From an uncultured Halobacteriales archaeon (GTDB lineage Archaea; Thermoplasmatota; E2; JACPAO01; JAHFTW01), in NCBI GenBank assembly GCA_964643795.1, contig CAZXUC010000016.1:5102-69101 (forward strand): a stretch of 64,000 bases of DNA, in the 5' to 3' direction. This document shows, one piece after another, positions 54,765-63,010 of the stretch. The stretch's first letter is position 1, and every line of letters begins with the position of its first letter. Made by a program: the position numbers and the translations under genes. A model generated the notes under the pieces. The model ran no database searches and was not told the DNA's origin. It saw only the letters and a list, made by a program, of their open reading frames with translations.

Positions 54765-55913
54765 GTGCCGACCCTGAACCGAATCGCCACAAGCCTCCCC
54801 ACCCATCGGCTACGCCAAGCGGACCTGCGCAGCATTACGGCGGCGGCGATGCCGGACCGCCCGGGCAAGGAACAGGTCCTGCAGATGTTCGACAACGCGC
54901 GCATCAATGGACGCAACCTCGCAATGCCCGTGGAATGGTACCTTGCCTCGCATGGGTTTGCAGAGCGCAACGATGCATACCTCGCGGTCGGGATGGAGCT
55001 CGTGGAGGACGCCGCACGCCAAGCCTGCGCCAGTGCAGGAATCGAGCCGAGGGAATTGACGGGCGTGTTGTTCGTGTCAACGACGGGACTCGCGACGCCC
55101 AGCATCGAAGTTCGCCTCGCCAATCGGCTTAGTCTTTCGCCGGACCTCTTGCGAGTCCCAATCTGGGGCCTAGGATGCGCAGGCGGAGTCGCCGGCATCG
55201 CGCGCGCCGCGGACCTGGCCCGTGCCTACCCGACAGGGCATTTCCTCGTCGTGGCCCTAGAATTGTGTAGTCTATCCTTCGACATTGGGTCCGCGTTGGC
55301 TGACGGCGGCGCTGTGTTCGACAAGAAGACCATGGCCTCGGCGAGCCTGTTCTCCGACGGGTGCGCCGCCCTAGTCGTCTCCGGCGACGAGGCGAAGCGC
55401 TCGGCTGGGGGCACGGGGAGCGCGGTGGGCGCGGGGGGCGCAATGGGCGCAGTGGGCACGGGGCGACGCGGCACGGGCGCTGACCAGCTGCGCCTCATCG
55501 GGACGGCAAGCCACCTCTGGCCCGACACGGAACGCGTCATGGGTTGGGACGTGCGCGACACCAACCTCGACGTCGTACTCTCGCCACGGATTCCAGACAT
55601 CGTGCGCGAACACATGCCAGCCCTCGCGGCGAAATTCCTTGCGTCCCACCAGACCGAGAAGCCCGACCACTGGCTGCTCCACCCTGGAGGCGCGAAAGTC
55701 GTCGATGCATTCCGCGAAGCGTTGGGGCTGTCCGTTGAAGACCTCGATGCCACCAGTGCCGTACTCTTGGAGCACGGCAATATGTCAAGCCCGACGGTCC
55801 TGTTCGTCTTGGACCGCGCCTGGGAAAGCATCGGCACGGGTGAGCGTGCGTTCCTGGCGGCACTTGGGCCGGGATTCTGCGCTGAACTTGCCCTCGTGGA
55901 GCGGCCGGCTTGA
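54765..55913 (+). CDS. type III polyketide synthase (chalcone/stilbene synthase family, BpsA/SrsA-like)
   Basis: Catalytic triad motifs WGLGCAGG (Cys), LHPGGAKV (His), HGNMSSPTVL (Asn). Also STTGLATPS, LELCSL, LFSDG, ALGPGF. Confidence 0.93.
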   Translation: MPTLNRIATSLPTHRLRQADLRSITAAAMPDRPGKEQVLQMFDNARINGRNLAMPVEWYLASHGFAERNDAYLAVGMELVEDAARQACASAGIEPRELTGVLFVSTTGLATPSIEVRLANRLSLSPDLLRVPIWGLGCAGGVAGIARAADLARAYPTGHFLVVALELCSLSFDIGSALADGGAVFDKKTMASASLFSDGCAALVVSGDEAKRSAGGTGSAVGAGGAMGAVGTGRRGTGADQLRLIGTASHLWPDTERVMGWDVRDTNLDVVLSPRIPDIVREHMPALAAKFLASHQTEKPDHWLLHPGGAKVVDAFREALGLSVEDLDATSAVLLEHGNMSSPTVLFVLDRAWESIGTGERAFLAALGPGFCAELALVERPA

Positions 55914-56443
55914 CGTCGCCACTATTCTGGTCGATATGGATCGGCTTCGTCCTGCTGCGCGCAGGTGAATTGTGGCTTGACCGCCGCAACGTCGCGTGGC
56001 TACTTGCTCGAGGCGGCAAGCTGCTCCGGGATGATGGGTACGGCTTGCTTGTCTTCGTGCACGCTGCATGGCTGCTAGGTTTGGCCGTGGAGGCCGTCCT
56101 GGCGCCGTGGCCGCCATTCGGATTGTGGAGCGTGCTGGGCTTCGCACTTCTCGCCGTCGGAACGGGTTTGCGCTACGCCTCGATGCTGCAACTCGGTCGC
56201 CGTTGGACGGCGCGCGTCGTGGTCCTGCCCACGGCTCCACTCGTGACCGGCGGGCCCTACCGGTTCATGCGCCATCCCATCTACGTTGGCGTCACCCTGG
56301 AACTCGTCGGCCTTCCCCTCGCCTTCGGATTGTGGGGGACTCTGGCCGTCGTCTTGCCGCTCAACGCCATCGCTCTGGCGCGCCGCATCCGACGAGAAAA
56401 CGCCGCACTGGGTCGGCTGCCGCCAACCAAGGCGAACGACTAA
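55910..56443 (+). CDS. isoprenylcysteine carboxyl methyltransferase (ICMT) family protein, BpsB/SrsB-like
   Basis: LRAGEL...RN...LLARGG, VHAAWL, LGRRWTARV, GGPYRFMRHPIYVGVTLE, RIRRENAAL. TTGA overlap with the PKS stop. Confidence 0.9.
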   Translation: MTSPLFWSIWIGFVLLRAGELWLDRRNVAWLLARGGKLLRDDGYGLLVFVHAAWLLGLAVEAVLAPWPPFGLWSVLGFALLAVGTGLRYASMLQLGRRWTARVVVLPTAPLVTGGPYRFMRHPIYVGVTLELVGLPLAFGLWGTLAVVLPLNAIALARRIRRENAALGRLPPTKAND

Positions 56444-56469: not shown

Positions 56470-57435
56470 ATGGATCGACGCGACGCCGAGACAGCCCTGC
56501 GCCTCGCCCGGCAATGGACCCGCGAGAAACTGATGCCGACGTCCAGCCTTGCAGTCCTCGAGAAGCGCCATGCCGCCGATGCCGGGCGAGAAGGCGGCGA
56601 ATCGTTCGGTTCCTCCGTGCTCTACGGGCTTGGCGGCGTCCTGCTGGGGGCTGCAGCCTTTGCATTGTTCTTCTTGCTGATGGACAACGGGTACATCACG
56701 AGCCAGGACGGCGACCGGGAAGCGCCTTGGATTTTCCTGACGTGGGGACTCGCGTGCGCCGCCGTAGCGTTCACCATCGACTTCGTTGCCAAGCGGCCGA
56801 CGTTGGGGGAGTCCTTCCACGTGGCGGCACTCGTCGCGGTCACGGCTTCGGCGTTCCCGCGGCCGCACGACTTGGCGCTCGGCCACATGGCGATGCTCTA
56901 CGCAGTGGGCATCCTGGCGTACCGGCGGCAACGCTTCATGGTGCCCTTCCTCGCGCTGGTCGCCCTCAACGTGGCTTGGACTTCCGTCATGGAGAGCGCC
57001 TTCTGGCCACTACGCTCCGAAGAGGCCGCGTTCGGCGCATGGTTCGTCTTCGCCATCGCGCAGATGGGTCTGTTGATCGTCGCGACCCGCTCGACGAAGT
57101 GGCCCTGGCCTGCAACAAGCCTGGGCGGCGTGACCCTACTGGTCGCGGGCTCGTTCCTTGCATGGTACTTTGAAGTCATCGCTGAGCAGACGAATGGCTT
57201 CCCCGGGGACGTCGAAATCTACCTCGCCGCACTCATGGGCGCCGTCATGGCGCTCGGCTTCGTGCTGCGCCAAAAAAGCATGGTGTTGGCGTGCGCTCTC
57301 GTCATCGCCATCGACGCCATCGTCTTCGCCTTCGATGTCGGCGACCTCGTGGGCGGCCTGCTCGCCATCCTGGCCGTCGCGGGCCTACTCATCTGGCAGG
57401 CGGGATTCCTGCGCCGGTACCTGCGCGAATCATGA
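56470..57435 (+). CDS. polytopic membrane protein, DUF2157-like
   Basis: ATG 56470. W...L......L..R..A... then LYGLGGVLLGAAAF and about 9 TMs. Confidence 0.75.
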   Translation: MDRRDAETALRLARQWTREKLMPTSSLAVLEKRHAADAGREGGESFGSSVLYGLGGVLLGAAAFALFFLLMDNGYITSQDGDREAPWIFLTWGLACAAVAFTIDFVAKRPTLGESFHVAALVAVTASAFPRPHDLALGHMAMLYAVGILAYRRQRFMVPFLALVALNVAWTSVMESAFWPLRSEEAAFGAWFVFAIAQMGLLIVATRSTKWPWPATSLGGVTLLVAGSFLAWYFEVIAEQTNGFPGDVEIYLAALMGAVMALGFVLRQKSMVLACALVIAIDAIVFAFDVGDLVGGLLAILAVAGLLIWQAGFLRRYLRES

Positions 57436-58717: not shown

Positions 58718-59557
58718 TCAATTGAGCTCGTCCGATTCGTCCTTGCCTTCTTCGCGGTCGCCGGATAGGAACGTATCGTATTCCGGGGTCACGTCTTCGG
58801 ACTCGCCGACGGCGCCCTGCACGAGGCGGTAGAGGTCGTCCAATCCGCTTGCCTCGAGGGAACTGATGGCGACCAAGTTGCGTTCGACGTGCAGCGTGTC
58901 GAGGAGGCGACTGACTTGTGCGGCGAACTCCTGCACCATGCCGGGCGATTCCGTCAAGATGTCATGCTCGAGGGCTTCGGGGTCTGCGGCCCACGACTTG
59001 ATGGTCTCCACGGAGTCAGGATCGATGCGGTCGGCCTTGGAGAGGAGGAACATCATTGGTTCCTGGAAGCGGAACGCCGTAGTTGCGCCAAGCAGGAGTT
59101 GGCTCGCGAAGCCTGAGGCCGTGCGGGCGAGGAACGGGTCGAGCAGATACGCCACGACGCTCCTGCCGGGGTTCAACGTGGAGACAATGTGCTTGCCGGA
59201 TTGGCGGAAGACGAAGAGCTCGATCTGCCCCGGCGTATCGACGAGCACCTGGTCGGCGCGGAACGTTTCAATCTCGTTCTTGACCTCATCGAGGTTCAAC
59301 GCAATCATGTCCGCGGCCGCAATTTGAGCACCATTTGGTCCGAGGCCGTTCTCTTCCATGATTTCGTCGATGCGCACCCAATCGCGGATGTCCACGTCGG
59401 GCGTGTACGGAAGTTTCTCTGCGCCCGGGTCCAGATTGACGATGACCGTGCGGATGCCACTCTGCTTCGCCCACCGATCGTAGGCAGCGACCATCGTCGA
59501 TTTCCCCGCGCCTGCCGTTCCGACGAAGTAAATGTGGACCTCTTGTTCCGCCATCAC
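58718..59557 (-). CDS. GPN-loop GTPase (archaeal GPN/PAB0955-like)
   Basis: GTAGAGKST, VNLDPG, DIRDW, LGPNGAQI (GPN), DTPGQIELF, SKAD. GTGATG overlap with the purD stop. Confidence 0.93.
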   Translation of the reverse strand: MMAEQEVHIYFVGTAGAGKSTMVAAYDRWAKQSGIRTVIVNLDPGAEKLPYTPDVDIRDWVRIDEIMEENGLGPNGAQIAAADMIALNLDEVKNEIETFRADQVLVDTPGQIELFVFRQSGKHIVSTLNPGRSVVAYLLDPFLARTASGFASQLLLGATTAFRFQEPMMFLLSKADRIDPDSVETIKSWAADPEALEHDILTESPGMVQEFAAQVSRLLDTLHVERNLVAISSLEASGLDDLYRLVQGAVGESEDVTPEYDTFLSGDREEGKDESDELN

Positions 59558-62025
59558 GGCACCTTGGGCTTAACCCGCTCTGCCCACGGGTTCGCCGGAA
59601 CCTTCGGGGGCTCCGCCGGAGCGCGTTCAGCGGCGGAGGGTGGGGGCGTGGCCGAGATTGTGGGGGTTGGCGGAGTTGGTGGCGTGACCAAGGTTGGCGG
59701 CGTTGGCGGCGTTGAGGGCCTTAGCGGCGTTGGGGGCGAGGCCGGTGCCGGCGGCGTACGTGGCGTTTGCACGACCGGCGCCGTCGCCACGACCGCGGGT
59801 TTCACGGTTGGCATCGATGGGCTTGGAACCGCGCTCGGCGGCGTCGGCGTCAGCGCTTGACCGGTAAGCGCCGTTGATGCCGGCGGGTTGAGCGGCCGCG
59901 TTGCCACGGGCGGCGGCGCTACCTTTGGTTGCGTCGGCATGACGTTGGGCACTGTGGTCGCCGGCTGGGGCGGCGTCGTGGGAATCAGGGGCGTTCGGAC
60001 GAGTGGCGTCGGTGCTGGCGCCGGAGCGGCAGTTGCCGCTCGCTGCGCGTTTGCAGCGCGGAGCGCGGCCATATTCTGCATGCGCTTCGCGATGAGGGCC
60101 GAGCTGCCGATGTCGTGCCGGACATGCAAGCCCTCACCGTGGACGTGGCGCAACGCCGCTTCGCAGACGTCGTTTGCCAGGGCAATCGTGTCGCCTTCTC
60201 CGAGCACGGCAATGGCGCGGCTCGACATCGTGGAAAGCGGACCGCCCGGGTGCTGCTCCACGTGAGCGTAGTAGGCAGTCCCTCCTGCGCGCTTGAGGTT
60301 GAACTCATCGACCTGCACGGTGCGGCCGGCGGTTGGCTTACCTTCACCGTAGCCGTTGGGGACGACGTACTTCACGACGGTCGCCCTGGGTCGGAAGTCG
60401 GCCTTCATTCCCGCGAGCTTCCCGGCCGCCATGGCGTGCAGGATGTCGGCGTAGTTGGAGGCGAGGAGATGGCAGGCGTTGACGGCTTCCGGGTCGCCGA
60501 AGCGTGCGTTGACCTCGATGACTTTCGGCCCCGTCGCCGTGAGCATGAACTGGCCGTAGATTGTGCCGACGTAGGGAGTTCCGTCCTTGCGAAGAGCGTC
60601 GACGATGCCGTGCAGGACACGGAGGGACTCGTCGTAATCGCCGCGCGAGAGGAATGGCAGCAACCCGTCCGCCTGCGAGTAGGAGCCCATTCCGCCGGTG
60701 TTCGGGCCTTGGTCACCCTCGAGCAGGCGCTTATGGTCCTGGATGGCAGGCATCGGCAAGATAGTCGTGCCGTCACAGAACGCCATGACGGTGAACTCCT
60801 CACCGTGCGCCAGCTCCTCGAATTGCAGCGCGCCGCCGCCGACCTTGCCTTCGAAAATGGAAGCGACGTAGGATTTGGCGCCGGCGAGGTCCGTGAAGTG
60901 GTCGCCATAGACTTGCACACCTTTGCCACCCGTGAGCCCGATTGGCTTGATGGCCCACTTGGGCCCATTCTTGTCAAGGAATGCGAGGGCCGCGGATTGG
61001 TTCGTGAAGGGATGGTGGGCGAGGCGCCCCGGCAAGTCGTGGCGCGCCATGAGGTCGCGCATGAATGTCTTGTCAGTCTCGATGCGAGCCGCCGCCTTGC
61101 TTGGGCTTGCGGTCGGAATGCCTGCGGCACGCAGGGCATCCGTGAGGCCTGCCTCCAGCGCGGATTCAGGGCCGACGACGGCCACGCCGACCTTCTGTGC
61201 CCGAGCCCAAGCGACGATTCCAGGAACGTCGCGTTCGTCGAGGAGCCTGAACCCGGTTGCGACCTTGACGATGCCTGGGTTGCGGTGGCGCGGCACGGCG
61301 TAAACCTCGGCGCCGGAACGCACGAGTGCTAAGGCCATCGCGTGTTCGCGTGCACCCGAACCAACGAGGAGAATCTTGGAGCGCTCGCCGCGGTGGGGCG
61401 GGCCTTGCGCATAGCCGGTCGCGGCGCGGTCGCGGGCGTAAACGATTGCATCCGGGTCCGATGCGGGCGCAGGTCGCGGTGAATCGCCCGAGACGAGGCC
61501 TGCGACGGGCGCGCGGCCAGTGTAGACTTCCGTGTCGGACTCGCCGGGCTTGAGCGGACGGGAGGGCATAGGCCCGCCGCTTGCGTAGCCTCCGCCGCCG
61601 CCCGAACCCGTGGCGGCCCGGCCGCCGCCGAGCAAGGGACCTGAACGCGGCGTCGGATCCGTGGACGGCCGGCGCGGTGAACTCGTTACTTCGACATCCT
61701 CGTCGGCATACAGCGGCGCCTTGGGGTCGCGGGGCGCGGAGCCACCGGTTCCATCCGGGTTCCTGGCGCCGATGCCGTCGACGACTTGTCCGGACGGCGT
61801 GGTCCATCCGCCAGCGCCTCCCTTGCTTGGATCGACCCACACTTCGGCGTCTTCCTCGACGCGTCCCGGTCGCTGCTTGCGGTGCTCGTCGCCGGGCGCG
61901 GCGGCAGGAATCGATTCTCGTCCAGGCTTCGTGGGACGCGGGGTTCCGGGCAGCTCTTCGGCGCCGCCGACGACCTTGGGTTTTCCCGGTTGGGTCTCCT
62001 TGGGCTCCTGCGCATCCCCGGCCAT
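59554..62025 (-). CDS. purD: phosphoribosylamine-glycine ligase with long disordered N- and C-terminal extensions (823 aa)
   Basis: KILLVGSGAREHA, VGPES.L, IKPIGLTGGKGV, QDHKRL.EGD.GPNTGGMGSY, EVNARFGDPE. Start 62025 is supported by a TTTTTG box 24 nt upstream. Confidence 0.92.
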   Translation of the reverse strand: MAGDAQEPKETQPGKPKVVGGAEELPGTPRPTKPGRESIPAAAPGDEHRKQRPGRVEEDAEVWVDPSKGGAGGWTTPSGQVVDGIGARNPDGTGGSAPRDPKAPLYADEDVEVTSSPRRPSTDPTPRSGPLLGGGRAATGSGGGGGYASGGPMPSRPLKPGESDTEVYTGRAPVAGLVSGDSPRPAPASDPDAIVYARDRAATGYAQGPPHRGERSKILLVGSGAREHAMALALVRSGAEVYAVPRHRNPGIVKVATGFRLLDERDVPGIVAWARAQKVGVAVVGPESALEAGLTDALRAAGIPTASPSKAAARIETDKTFMRDLMARHDLPGRLAHHPFTNQSAALAFLDKNGPKWAIKPIGLTGGKGVQVYGDHFTDLAGAKSYVASIFEGKVGGGALQFEELAHGEEFTVMAFCDGTTILPMPAIQDHKRLLEGDQGPNTGGMGSYSQADGLLPFLSRGDYDESLRVLHGIVDALRKDGTPYVGTIYGQFMLTATGPKVIEVNARFGDPEAVNACHLLASNYADILHAMAAGKLAGMKADFRPRATVVKYVVPNGYGEGKPTAGRTVQVDEFNLKRAGGTAYYAHVEQHPGGPLSTMSSRAIAVLGEGDTIALANDVCEAALRHVHGEGLHVRHDIGSSALIAKRMQNMAALRAANAQRAATAAPAPAPTPLVRTPLIPTTPPQPATTVPNVMPTQPKVAPPPVATRPLNPPASTALTGQALTPTPPSAVPSPSMPTVKPAVVATAPVVQTPRTPPAPASPPTPLRPSTPPTPPTLVTPPTPPTPTISATPPPSAAERAPAEPPKVPANPWAERVKPKVP

Positions 62026-62047
62026 GGCATGGCGACAGTGAAGGGGG

Positions 62048-62054
62048 TCAAAAA
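62048..62054 (-). promoter_or_regulatory. TATA-like promoter of purD
   Basis: TTTTTGA, with the TTTTTG ending 24 nt before ATG 62025. Confidence 0.5.
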
Positions 62055-62128
62055 CCGCGTCATGCGGAACGGCGTGCTGTGCGCGCCGGTCCGCCAGCTC
62101 CAAATGGTGGATTACTCCTGGTGACACG

Positions 62129-63010
62129 ATGGGCCGCTTGAATCGCTTCCTCGTGCGCCTTGAATCGGCTGCGACCTGGACCCATCGCCGCCGCGCGCTT
62201 CGCGTCCCTGCCCGTATCCTCGGATTGGGCATCCTGCACAACGTGGTCCGGCGCCGCCTCTTTCGCCCCTACGTCCGCGACCTCACCGTCAACGGCGGTC
62301 CAATCCGCCTGCGCATCTCGTCCCCAATCGCTGAGCAATGGTATGGCCACGGCATCCCTGAAGGCGCTGCGACCCGCGCCTTCCTCTCGCTGCTTAGCCC
62401 AGGCCAACGCGTCGCCGATGTGGGGGCCCATCACGGGGTGTACTCCGTCCTCGCCGCAAAGGCCGTCGGAGCCGATGGAAAGATCCTGGCCATGGAACCG
62501 CATCCAACGAACGTATCCGTGCTGCGCGAGAACGTCGCTTTGAACGGCCTGGAAAATGTCGTTGTCCTTGATGCTGCGGCCGGCGCAACGAAGGGAATGG
62601 CGTCGTTCCACGATGCCACGAACGGCCGCGTCAGGCCGGACGGGTCCACTGGCACCATCGCCGTGCCGGTCGTGCCGCTCGACGAGGCGAAGTCGGACGT
62701 GGGGTGGGACGGCGTCGACGTTCTGAAGATTGACGTCGAGGGCTTCGAGGGTGAAGTCTTGGCTGGCGCGAGGGTTTGCCTCGAAAGCAAACCCCGCATA
62801 TTTCTGGAGGTCCATCCGGTCTTCTTGGCGGCGCGGGGCAAACGCCCCATCGATGTCCTGGCGCCCTTGGGGGCCGCAGGCTACGTGTTGTGGGTGGGCG
62901 GCAAGGGCGGGAGCGACCAATTCGTGCGGTGGACCGGTCAGGAAGTCAATGGGGAAGCGGTCCCATTCATCGCCGTGCCGGCAGACGACGCGTGGCGTCC
63001 GCCCGAGTAA
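62129..63010 (+). CDS. FkbM-family SAM-dependent methyltransferase
   Basis: VADVGAHHGVYS, ILAMEPHP.N...L..N..LN, LKIDVEGFEGEVLAGA, IFLEVH. Confidence 0.9.
   Translation: MGRLNRFLVRLESAATWTHRRRALRVPARILGLGILHNVVRRRLFRPYVRDLTVNGGPIRLRISSPIAEQWYGHGIPEGAATRAFLSLLSPGQRVADVGAHHGVYSVLAAKAVGADGKILAMEPHPTNVSVLRENVALNGLENVVVLDAAAGATKGMASFHDATNGRVRPDGSTGTIAVPVVPLDEAKSDVGWDGVDVLKIDVEGFEGEVLAGARVCLESKPRIFLEVHPVFLAARGKRPIDVLAPLGAAGYVLWVGGKGGSDQFVRWTGQEVNGEAVPFIAVPADDAWRPPE

Follow-up and report, generated by a model that had tools for sequence, protein, structure and literature searches.

A coupled type III polyketide synthase and ICMT-family methyltransferase gene pair of bacterial type in a permafrost Thermoplasmatota archaeon

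Results

A type III polyketide synthase gene overlaps an ICMT-family gene

The window analyzed here is a 64,000-nt stretch (C16:5102-69101; contig CAZXUC010000016.1) of the 2.78-Mb, 62-contig genome of an uncultured Thermoplasmatota archaeon from permafrost, estimated to be 88% complete with 0.36% contamination. It contains an intact gene for a predicted type III polyketide synthase (PKS), followed on the same strand by an intact gene for a predicted ICMT-family integral-membrane O-methyltransferase (Table 1). The stop codon of the former and the start codon of the latter overlap by 4 nt, in agreement with the translational coupling that an initial annotation of this DNA had described; the genes are paired as in BpsA-BpsB of Bacillus.

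Table 1. Features of the PKS-ICMT locus and of the unlinked megasynthase operon (positions are those of the window unless a contig is named)
Feature	Position	Strand	Details and basis
Type III PKS gene, BpsA/PKS11-like	54765-55913	+	382 aa, GTG start; open reading frame, Pfam, PKS11 match, AlphaFold2 model
Catalytic Cys138 codon (GLGCAGG)	55176-55178	+	Aligned with GLGCVAG of PKS11
Gly/Ala-rich insertion, ~residues 212-240 (~29 residues)	55398-55484	+	In-frame, built on a 9-bp tandem repeat
Catalytic His306 codon (LHPGGAK)	55680-55682	+	HPGG aligned with PKS11
Catalytic Asn339 codon (HGNMSS)	55779-55781	+	Aligned with GNLSS of PKS11
ICMT start/PKS stop overlap, 4 nt (cTTGA)	55910-55913	+	Sequence read directly; PKS stop is TGA
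ICMT-family integral-membrane O-methyltransferase gene, BpsB-like	55910-56443	+	177 aa, TTG start; Pfam ICMT
Candidate third partner, membrane protein with ~8 transmembrane segments	56470-57435	+	321 aa; 27 nt past the ICMT stop
Carboxyltransferase - PfaA-like megasynthase - BioY - biotin carboxylase operon	C13:22028-35689 (locus L108:5029-18690)		Outside the window

Pfam searches of the PKS protein returned Chal_sti_synt_N (58.9 bits; 6e-16) and Chal_sti_synt_C (57.6 bits; 2e-15), which clear the gathering cut-off of 27; neither ACP_syn_III nor ACP_syn_III_C reached its own cut-off, and the same scan gave no match to the HMG-CoA synthase (HMGS) family. The FabH models of NCBIfam reached 30-40 bits against cut-offs of 249-304, and an identity as HMGS or FabH was therefore rejected. 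DpgA was the best NCBIfam model, but its score of 142 bits fell short of the 425-bit cut-off, so that assignment as a DpgA equivalog was rejected as well. Among solved structures, the top sequence match was PKS11 of Mycobacterium tuberculosis (4jao; E 6e-53), and THNS (1u0m) ranked third.

An intact Cys-His-Asn triad had been noted in the initial annotation, and was borne out by alignment with PKS11: Cys138, His306, and Asn339 were all invariant among 24 relatives. Cys138 was identified as the nucleophile because the C-to-S mutant chain of PKS11 (4jat) differs at exactly this column. Five residues past His306 lies Lys311, a position occupied by Lys or Arg across the relatives. A Lys or Arg here has been reported for enzymes whose starters are bound to a carrier protein, and an Ala for those that use CoA starters (PMC9827899), although the residue is a weak predictor.

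An AlphaFold2 model of the PKS, built on an alignment of relatives, had a mean pLDDT of 89.9 and a pTM of 0.91. It shows the thiolase-type five-layer fold at the size of a stand-alone enzyme (~350-400 aa). When the model was searched with Foldseek, the best match was PKS11 (TM-score 0.83/0.90), followed by CylI and THNS, and the top 50 matches were type III PKSs throughout (TM-score 0.78-0.92). Judged by its domains and predicted fold, the protein belongs to the true type III PKSs of bacterial type and is neither HMGS nor FabH, as the initial annotation had proposed.

In public databases the PKS is called at 354 aa, from an internal ATG at codon 29, and this version is 100% identical over 93% of our query. 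We consider the GTG start the better call because the relatives all align from residue 1-3 and a confidently modelled strand occupies residues 8-17. The public call is thus probably truncated by 28 conserved N-terminal residues (54765-54848), which include the first β-strand.

The public call for the ICMT gene shares its TTG start, and homologs of the product are 172-178 aa in length. The protein matched the Pfam families ICMT (3.6e-22) and PEMT (6e-13), carries the motif GPYRFMRHPIY, and has four to five hydrophobic segments. Its only match to a solved structure, AtTam46 (1e-4), was weak and uninformative.

The contig is archaeal

The initial annotation had placed the pair among archaeal housekeeping genes of similar GC content and had called for a check of contig taxonomy; both points held. 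The flanking genes, as identified by Pfam, encode a stand-alone GMP synthase subunit B, a class-V aminotransferase, CinA, a GPN-loop GTPase, PurD, ThiI, and PanE. GC content is 0.656 in the 54-56 kb bin, and the 2-kb bins of the window span 0.59-0.67. In the same GTDB genus, 10 of 12 further species have the PKS and ICMT genes; in the nine congeners with contigs that reach the flanks, the pair has guaA-B on one side and cinA on the other, or adjoins the one of these two genes that is on the contig. The genome also encodes a geranylgeranylglyceryl phosphate (GGGP) synthase.

Bacterial contamination or a chimeric contig might be suspected, since the cassette is of bacterial type and one congener is labelled only "bacterium" at NCBI. 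We hold this explanation to be extremely improbable. The same syntenic site recurs in 10 independently assembled congeners, two of whose contigs are public as Thermoplasmata or Thermoplasmatota archaeon; estimated contamination is 0.36% and the GC content agrees with that of the window; and a separate assembly of a permafrost metagenome run (X1) has the locus on a contig of 42x depth. Contamination and chimerism were rejected on the strength of synteny, GC content, and this independent contig. The contig is archaeal, and neither bacterial nor chimeric.

The archaeal pair forms a single clade

The pair is rare: among 401 genomes sampled from the phylum it was present in 22, and among 162 genera in 12. 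In the family of the window's host, the sample had the pair in the window's genus only. A separate scan of species representatives matched three Thermoplasmatota loci. The nearest non-archaeal PKS loci, at 33-44% identity, belonged to Chloroflexota, Eisenbacteria, Bacillota (many of them Bacillaceae), Ignavibacteriota, and Alphaproteobacteria. A PKS gene followed by an ICMT gene on the same strand, with a gap of a few to ~100 nt, was observed at all 27 archaeal loci and at ~60 of 77 bacterial loci, including those of Bacillaceae. This shared order in archaea and most bacterial loci identifies the pair as a cassette of the BpsA/BpsB type.

Among the bacterial PKSs nearest by identity, several (loci L027-L031 and L034, Chloroflexota and other bacteria), from Chloroflexaceae, Roseiflexaceae, and Roseilinea, are without a downstream ICMT gene. 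At locus L110 (G066:C69:44974-46035), from another class of Thermoplasmatota, the PKS frame is open for 737 aa, which could reflect a fusion or simply GC-rich DNA in which the frame stays open far upstream.

Phylogenetic analyses were performed with both proteins, without B. subtilis BpsA itself. In the maximum-likelihood tree of the PKS, 26 sequences from Thermoplasmatota genomes and 22 metagenomic relatives formed one clade (ultrafast bootstrap 100, SH-aLRT 99), whose Thermoplasmatota members represent five GTDB families and at least two classes. The ICMT tree agreed with this: its archaeal clade (SH-aLRT 93) was placed beside Alphaproteobacteria (88). In both trees the archaeal clade stood among Bacillota, Alphaproteobacteria, and other holders of the cassette, which answers the comparison with bacterial type III PKSs that the initial annotation had advised. 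An Eisenbacteria sequence was sister to the archaeal PKS clade with a support of 94 in a quick tree but of only 65/17 in the careful maximum-likelihood tree. The sister group, and with it the donor lineage, was thus poorly supported in the careful tree, and the PKS and ICMT trees differed in this respect.

The simplest reading of these trees is one ancient transfer of the pair from bacteria to an ancestor within Thermoplasmatota. Since then, as synteny among congeners indicates, the window's genus has passed it down vertically, at one place in the chromosome. Mixed family labels inside the PKS clade suggest later exchange among Thermoplasmatota.

A Gly/Ala-rich insertion is confined to the window's PKS

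The PKS of the window carries an insertion (Table 1) that was missing from all 23 aligned relatives and that breaks every genome match of the protein into two pieces. Tandem Repeats Finder identified within it a repeat of 9-bp period, GGGCGCGGT, in 5.9 copies at 55409-55461. The insertion was modelled as a disordered surface loop (pLDDT 46-63). It is present on the 42x contig of run X1, which may be the source sample of the genome; a second, low-depth run (X2) is interrupted right at the repeat, which leaves X1 as the sole support for the insertion.

A PfaA-like megasynthase occurs in every PKS-bearing Thermoplasmatota genome sampled

The initial annotation had also suggested a search for acetyl-CoA carboxylase and acyl-CoA ligases. 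The genome encodes three carboxyltransferases and a biotin carboxylase, as well as two AMP-forming ligases and seven acyl-CoA dehydrogenases, with an enoyl-CoA hydratase gene near the carboxylase genes. Unexpectedly, a search of the genome for ketosynthase (KS) domains gave a 3092-aa open reading frame at C13:24567-33845 on the minus strand, within an operon with carboxylase genes (Table 1). Its domains are ordered KS - acyltransferase - (KS-like) - three carrier domains - ketoreductase (KR) - dehydratase - phosphopantetheinyl transferase (PPTase), the last being fused. In NCBIfam, PfaA came out as the best model, with a score of 918 bits and a cut-off of 1010. The motif GIDTV, in which Thr replaces the usual Ser, recurs in each of the three carrier domains.

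The megasynthase was found in 30 of 31 searched genomes of the window's order, the window's own genome included, and in 132 of the 401 phylum genomes. All 22 PKS-positive phylum genomes possess it, as against 110 of 379 PKS-negative ones (Fisher's exact test, p = 7e-12 by genome, 3e-8 by genus; neither value is corrected for phylogeny). The megasynthase was seen in eleven families, and the five families with the PKS are all among them.

The "Type R" secondary lipid synthases have a comparable architecture: in these clusters, described from bacteria only in the study that defined them, KS, malonyl-acyltransferase, chain-length-factor-like, three acyl carrier protein, and KR domains occur with a PPTase and acetyl-CoA carboxylase genes (Shulse and Allen, 2011; PMC3098273). 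The C13 megasynthase shares this layout and the association with carboxylase genes, but differs in its fused PPTase, its dehydratase domain, and its archaeal host, and it lies outside the window's locus. Roseiflexus was one of the original hosts of "Type R" clusters (PMC3098273), and co-occurrence of PKS and megasynthase may reach into bacteria.

Neighboring features

Downstream of the ICMT gene lies a gene for a 321-aa membrane protein (Table 1). The copy in the window had no Pfam match, and some relatives are DUF2157-like. Only 56 homologs were found, and those with a named source are from Thermoplasmatota without exception; many of them lie on contigs that agree in length with contigs bearing PKS and ICMT homologs, and so may share a contig with these. 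The gene is directly downstream of the pair in one congener (G012) and is displaced or absent in the others. The protein may be a lineage-specific third partner of the pair or a mere syntenic neighbor.

The PurD open reading frame (59554-62241, minus strand) is 895 aa as listed and has long Pro/Thr/Ala-rich low-complexity extensions at each end; its relatives align to ~residues 90-760 only.

Discussion

A putative methylated phenolic lipid pathway

We propose, with a probability of about 60%, that the pair is a functional two-gene cassette of the BpsA/BpsB type that would be supplied endogenously and give a methylated phenolic lipid. In this pathway, the soluble PKS would load a long-chain acyl starter onto Cys138, extend it two or three times with malonyl-CoA, and cyclize the chain to an alkylpyrone and/or an alkylresorcinol. 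The co-translated membrane enzyme of the ICMT family would then O-methylate a ring hydroxyl with S-adenosylmethionine, and the methylated phenolic lipid would reside in the archaeal membrane. Malonyl-CoA, and possibly the acyl starter, would come from the unlinked carboxylase/megasynthase operon on C13. The nearest solved structures are of lipid-handling enzymes, namely PKS11, which makes alkylpyrones, and CylI, a cyanobacterial alkylresorcinol former whose structure was solved with acyl- and β-ketoacyl-SNAC substrates. BpsA itself makes long-chain alkylpyrones and some alkylresorcinols, which BpsB O-methylates (PMC9827899, PMC5686519). By analogy with such relatives we assign a putative substrate and product and a putative site of methylation; the source of the starter and the role in physiology are likewise proposals.

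Several observations weigh against this proposal. The 29-residue insertion could alter activity, even though it is modelled as a surface loop, and the substitution of Thr for Ser in the carrier domains puts their loading in doubt, as far as sequence can tell. The locus was detected in none of the RNA runs searched. PKS (C16) and megasynthase (C13) genes are unlinked, and no contig was shared by the two in the genomes whose coordinates were compared. Moreover, the megasynthase is six times commoner than the PKS, so that a common need for malonyl-CoA, or common ancestry, may be all that lies behind the association; and as the carboxylase travels with the megasynthase, a need for malonyl-CoA and a need for acyl chains are not separable from co-occurrence. 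The choice between resorcinol and pyrone has been tied to a Trp/Gly rule, after Trp281 of ArsB and Gly284 of ArsC. This rule failed for DquA, and DquB, a homolog of BpsB, gave no methylated product in E. coli (PMC9827899). Substrate range and mode of cyclization are not reliably readable from sequence.

Alternative products and starters

The same cassette might instead draw its starter from scavenged or β-oxidation-derived acyl-CoA by way of AMP-forming ligases, with the operon on C13 giving malonyl-CoA at most. This is the main alternative, possible though doubtful. The two AMP-binding ligases, the seven acyl-CoA dehydrogenases, and the enoyl-CoA hydratase near the carboxylase genes could serve such a route, PKS and megasynthase are unlinked, and BpsA, DquA, and PKS11 all accept acyl-CoA in vitro (PMC9827899). 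The strict nesting of the PKS in megasynthase-positive genomes argues the other way, as does, weakly, Lys311 at the position reported for carrier-bound starters. The initial annotation had raised unusual starters of two kinds. Scavenged fatty acyl groups could indeed be used in view of these ligases and dehydrogenases, although endogenous supply is simpler; isoprenoid starters found no support. Condensation of an isoprenoid acyl-CoA with malonyl-CoA would suit a genome that makes isoprenoid ether lipids, as its GGGP synthase indicates, and type III PKSs are promiscuous. It is nonetheless very improbable: no isoprenoid-activating gene is adjacent to the pair or co-occurs with it, the enzymes around the archaeal clade in the tree take straight or methyl-branched fatty acyl groups as starters, and an endogenous synthase of the fatty-acyl type is always present. 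Because the megasynthase/carboxylase operon occurs in every PKS-bearing genome sampled, endogenous malonyl-CoA, and perhaps an endogenous acyl starter, are likelier than an isoprenoid one.

Two further alternatives concern the product, and we consider both improbable, the second slightly more so. The PKS might form a small, non-lipid aromatic polyketide from malonyl-CoA only or from a short starter, in the manner of tetrahydroxynaphthalene, phloroglucinol, or DpgA-type synthases, which would then be methylated. DpgA is the best NCBIfam model (142 bits), and THNS (1u0m) is both the third sequence match in the PDB and a top fold match. That DpgA score is far under its cut-off, however, the nearest structures and relatives are long-chain enzymes, and tailoring genes of Dpg or tetrahydroxynaphthalene pathways are absent at the locus. 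A lipophilic substrate also fits better because the obligate partner of the PKS is an integral-membrane enzyme of the ICMT type. Alternatively, the pair might make the precursor of a polyketide quinone acting as a membrane electron carrier, as in SrsABC of Streptomyces and the alkylbenzoquinone routes of mycobacteria, given that a PKS and an ICMT-like enzyme carry out the first two SrsABC steps. Yet the flanks, which encode the aminotransferase, the membrane protein of no recognized family, and CinA, hold no SrsC-like flavin hydroxylase, and none was found among those neighbors of the pair that the window shares with the syntenic loci of congeners.

What is new

The initial annotation held that true type III PKSs are rarely described in archaea. 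This stands for biochemistry: the literature searched yielded antiSMASH-type surveys only, and no biochemical work on type III PKSs of archaea, no archaeal polyketide with a demonstrated structure, and nothing on a ketosynthase of Poseidoniales. It does not stand for sequence databases, in which hundreds of homologs from Thermoplasmata or Thermoplasmatota are public, many of them under the name alkylresorcinol/alkylpyrone synthase or as type III polyketide synthases. Surveys of biosynthetic gene clusters with antiSMASH have likewise reported PKS clusters in Thermoplasmatota, with transcripts detected in one. As the pair is of a well-known bacterial kind and has been publicly named, its discovery at the level of sequence is not new. 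What is new here is the phylogeny with a single origin, the universal pairing with an ICMT gene at archaeal loci, and the strict nesting of the PKS in megasynthase-bearing archaea. Archaeal membranes are textbook isoprenoid ether systems. Since the cassette is small, comprises one soluble and one membrane protein, and is easy to express, few ways of obtaining a first polyketide or phenolic lipid from archaea would be as direct. In addition, the strict nesting suggests a testable idea of what a widespread archaeal megasynthase feeds.

Comparison with known systems

In Streptomyces griseus, SrsABC combines a type III PKS with an ICMT-like methyltransferase acting on alkylresorcinols; the flanking open reading frames of the archaeal locus include no SrsC-type hydroxylase. 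PKS11 of M. tuberculosis forms methyl-branched alkylpyrones from long-chain starters. The window's PKS has the catalytic triad in common with it (4jao, 4jap, 4jat) at ~30% identity, and differs in an extra stretch of 8 residues near residues 175-190 that characterizes its subclade. The closest parallel in gene order is provided by BpsA-BpsB of Bacillus subtilis and DquA-DquB of Sporomusaceae, where a type III PKS gene is likewise followed by that of an ICMT-family membrane methyltransferase and the known products are alkylpyrones or alkylresorcinols with long chains, together with the corresponding methyl ethers (PMC9827899, PMC5686519). The archaeal PKSs are 34-40% identical to homologs from Bacillota genomes. 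In contrast to the Bacillus system, the host of the window's pair is an archaeon that does not sporulate and whose lipids are isoprenoid ethers, and its PKS belongs to a clade of its own and carries the 29-residue Gly-rich loop.

In Azotobacter vinelandii, the type I fatty acid synthases of the ArsABCD system feed type III PKSs that make the phenolic lipids of cysts. As there, a type I megasynthase of the fatty-acid type stands beside a type III PKS in one genome. Unlike the ars genes, which form one operon, the megasynthase and PKS genes lie on separate contigs (C13 and C16), and the megasynthase is a PfaA-like enzyme of the "Type R" kind with Thr-type carrier domains, far commoner than the PKS. 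Lys311 alone hints at a handover of acyl chains from a carrier domain to the PKS. We tentatively raise the possibility of an archaeal counterpart of Ars, in which the megasynthase would build a fatty acyl chain from the malonyl-CoA of its own carboxylase operon and pass it to the PKS, and the ICMT enzyme would methylate the alkylresorcinol or alkylpyrone so formed, placing non-isoprenoid phenolic lipids in an ether-lipid membrane. If so, such lipids could serve, for example, in adaptation to dormancy or cold stress in permafrost soil.

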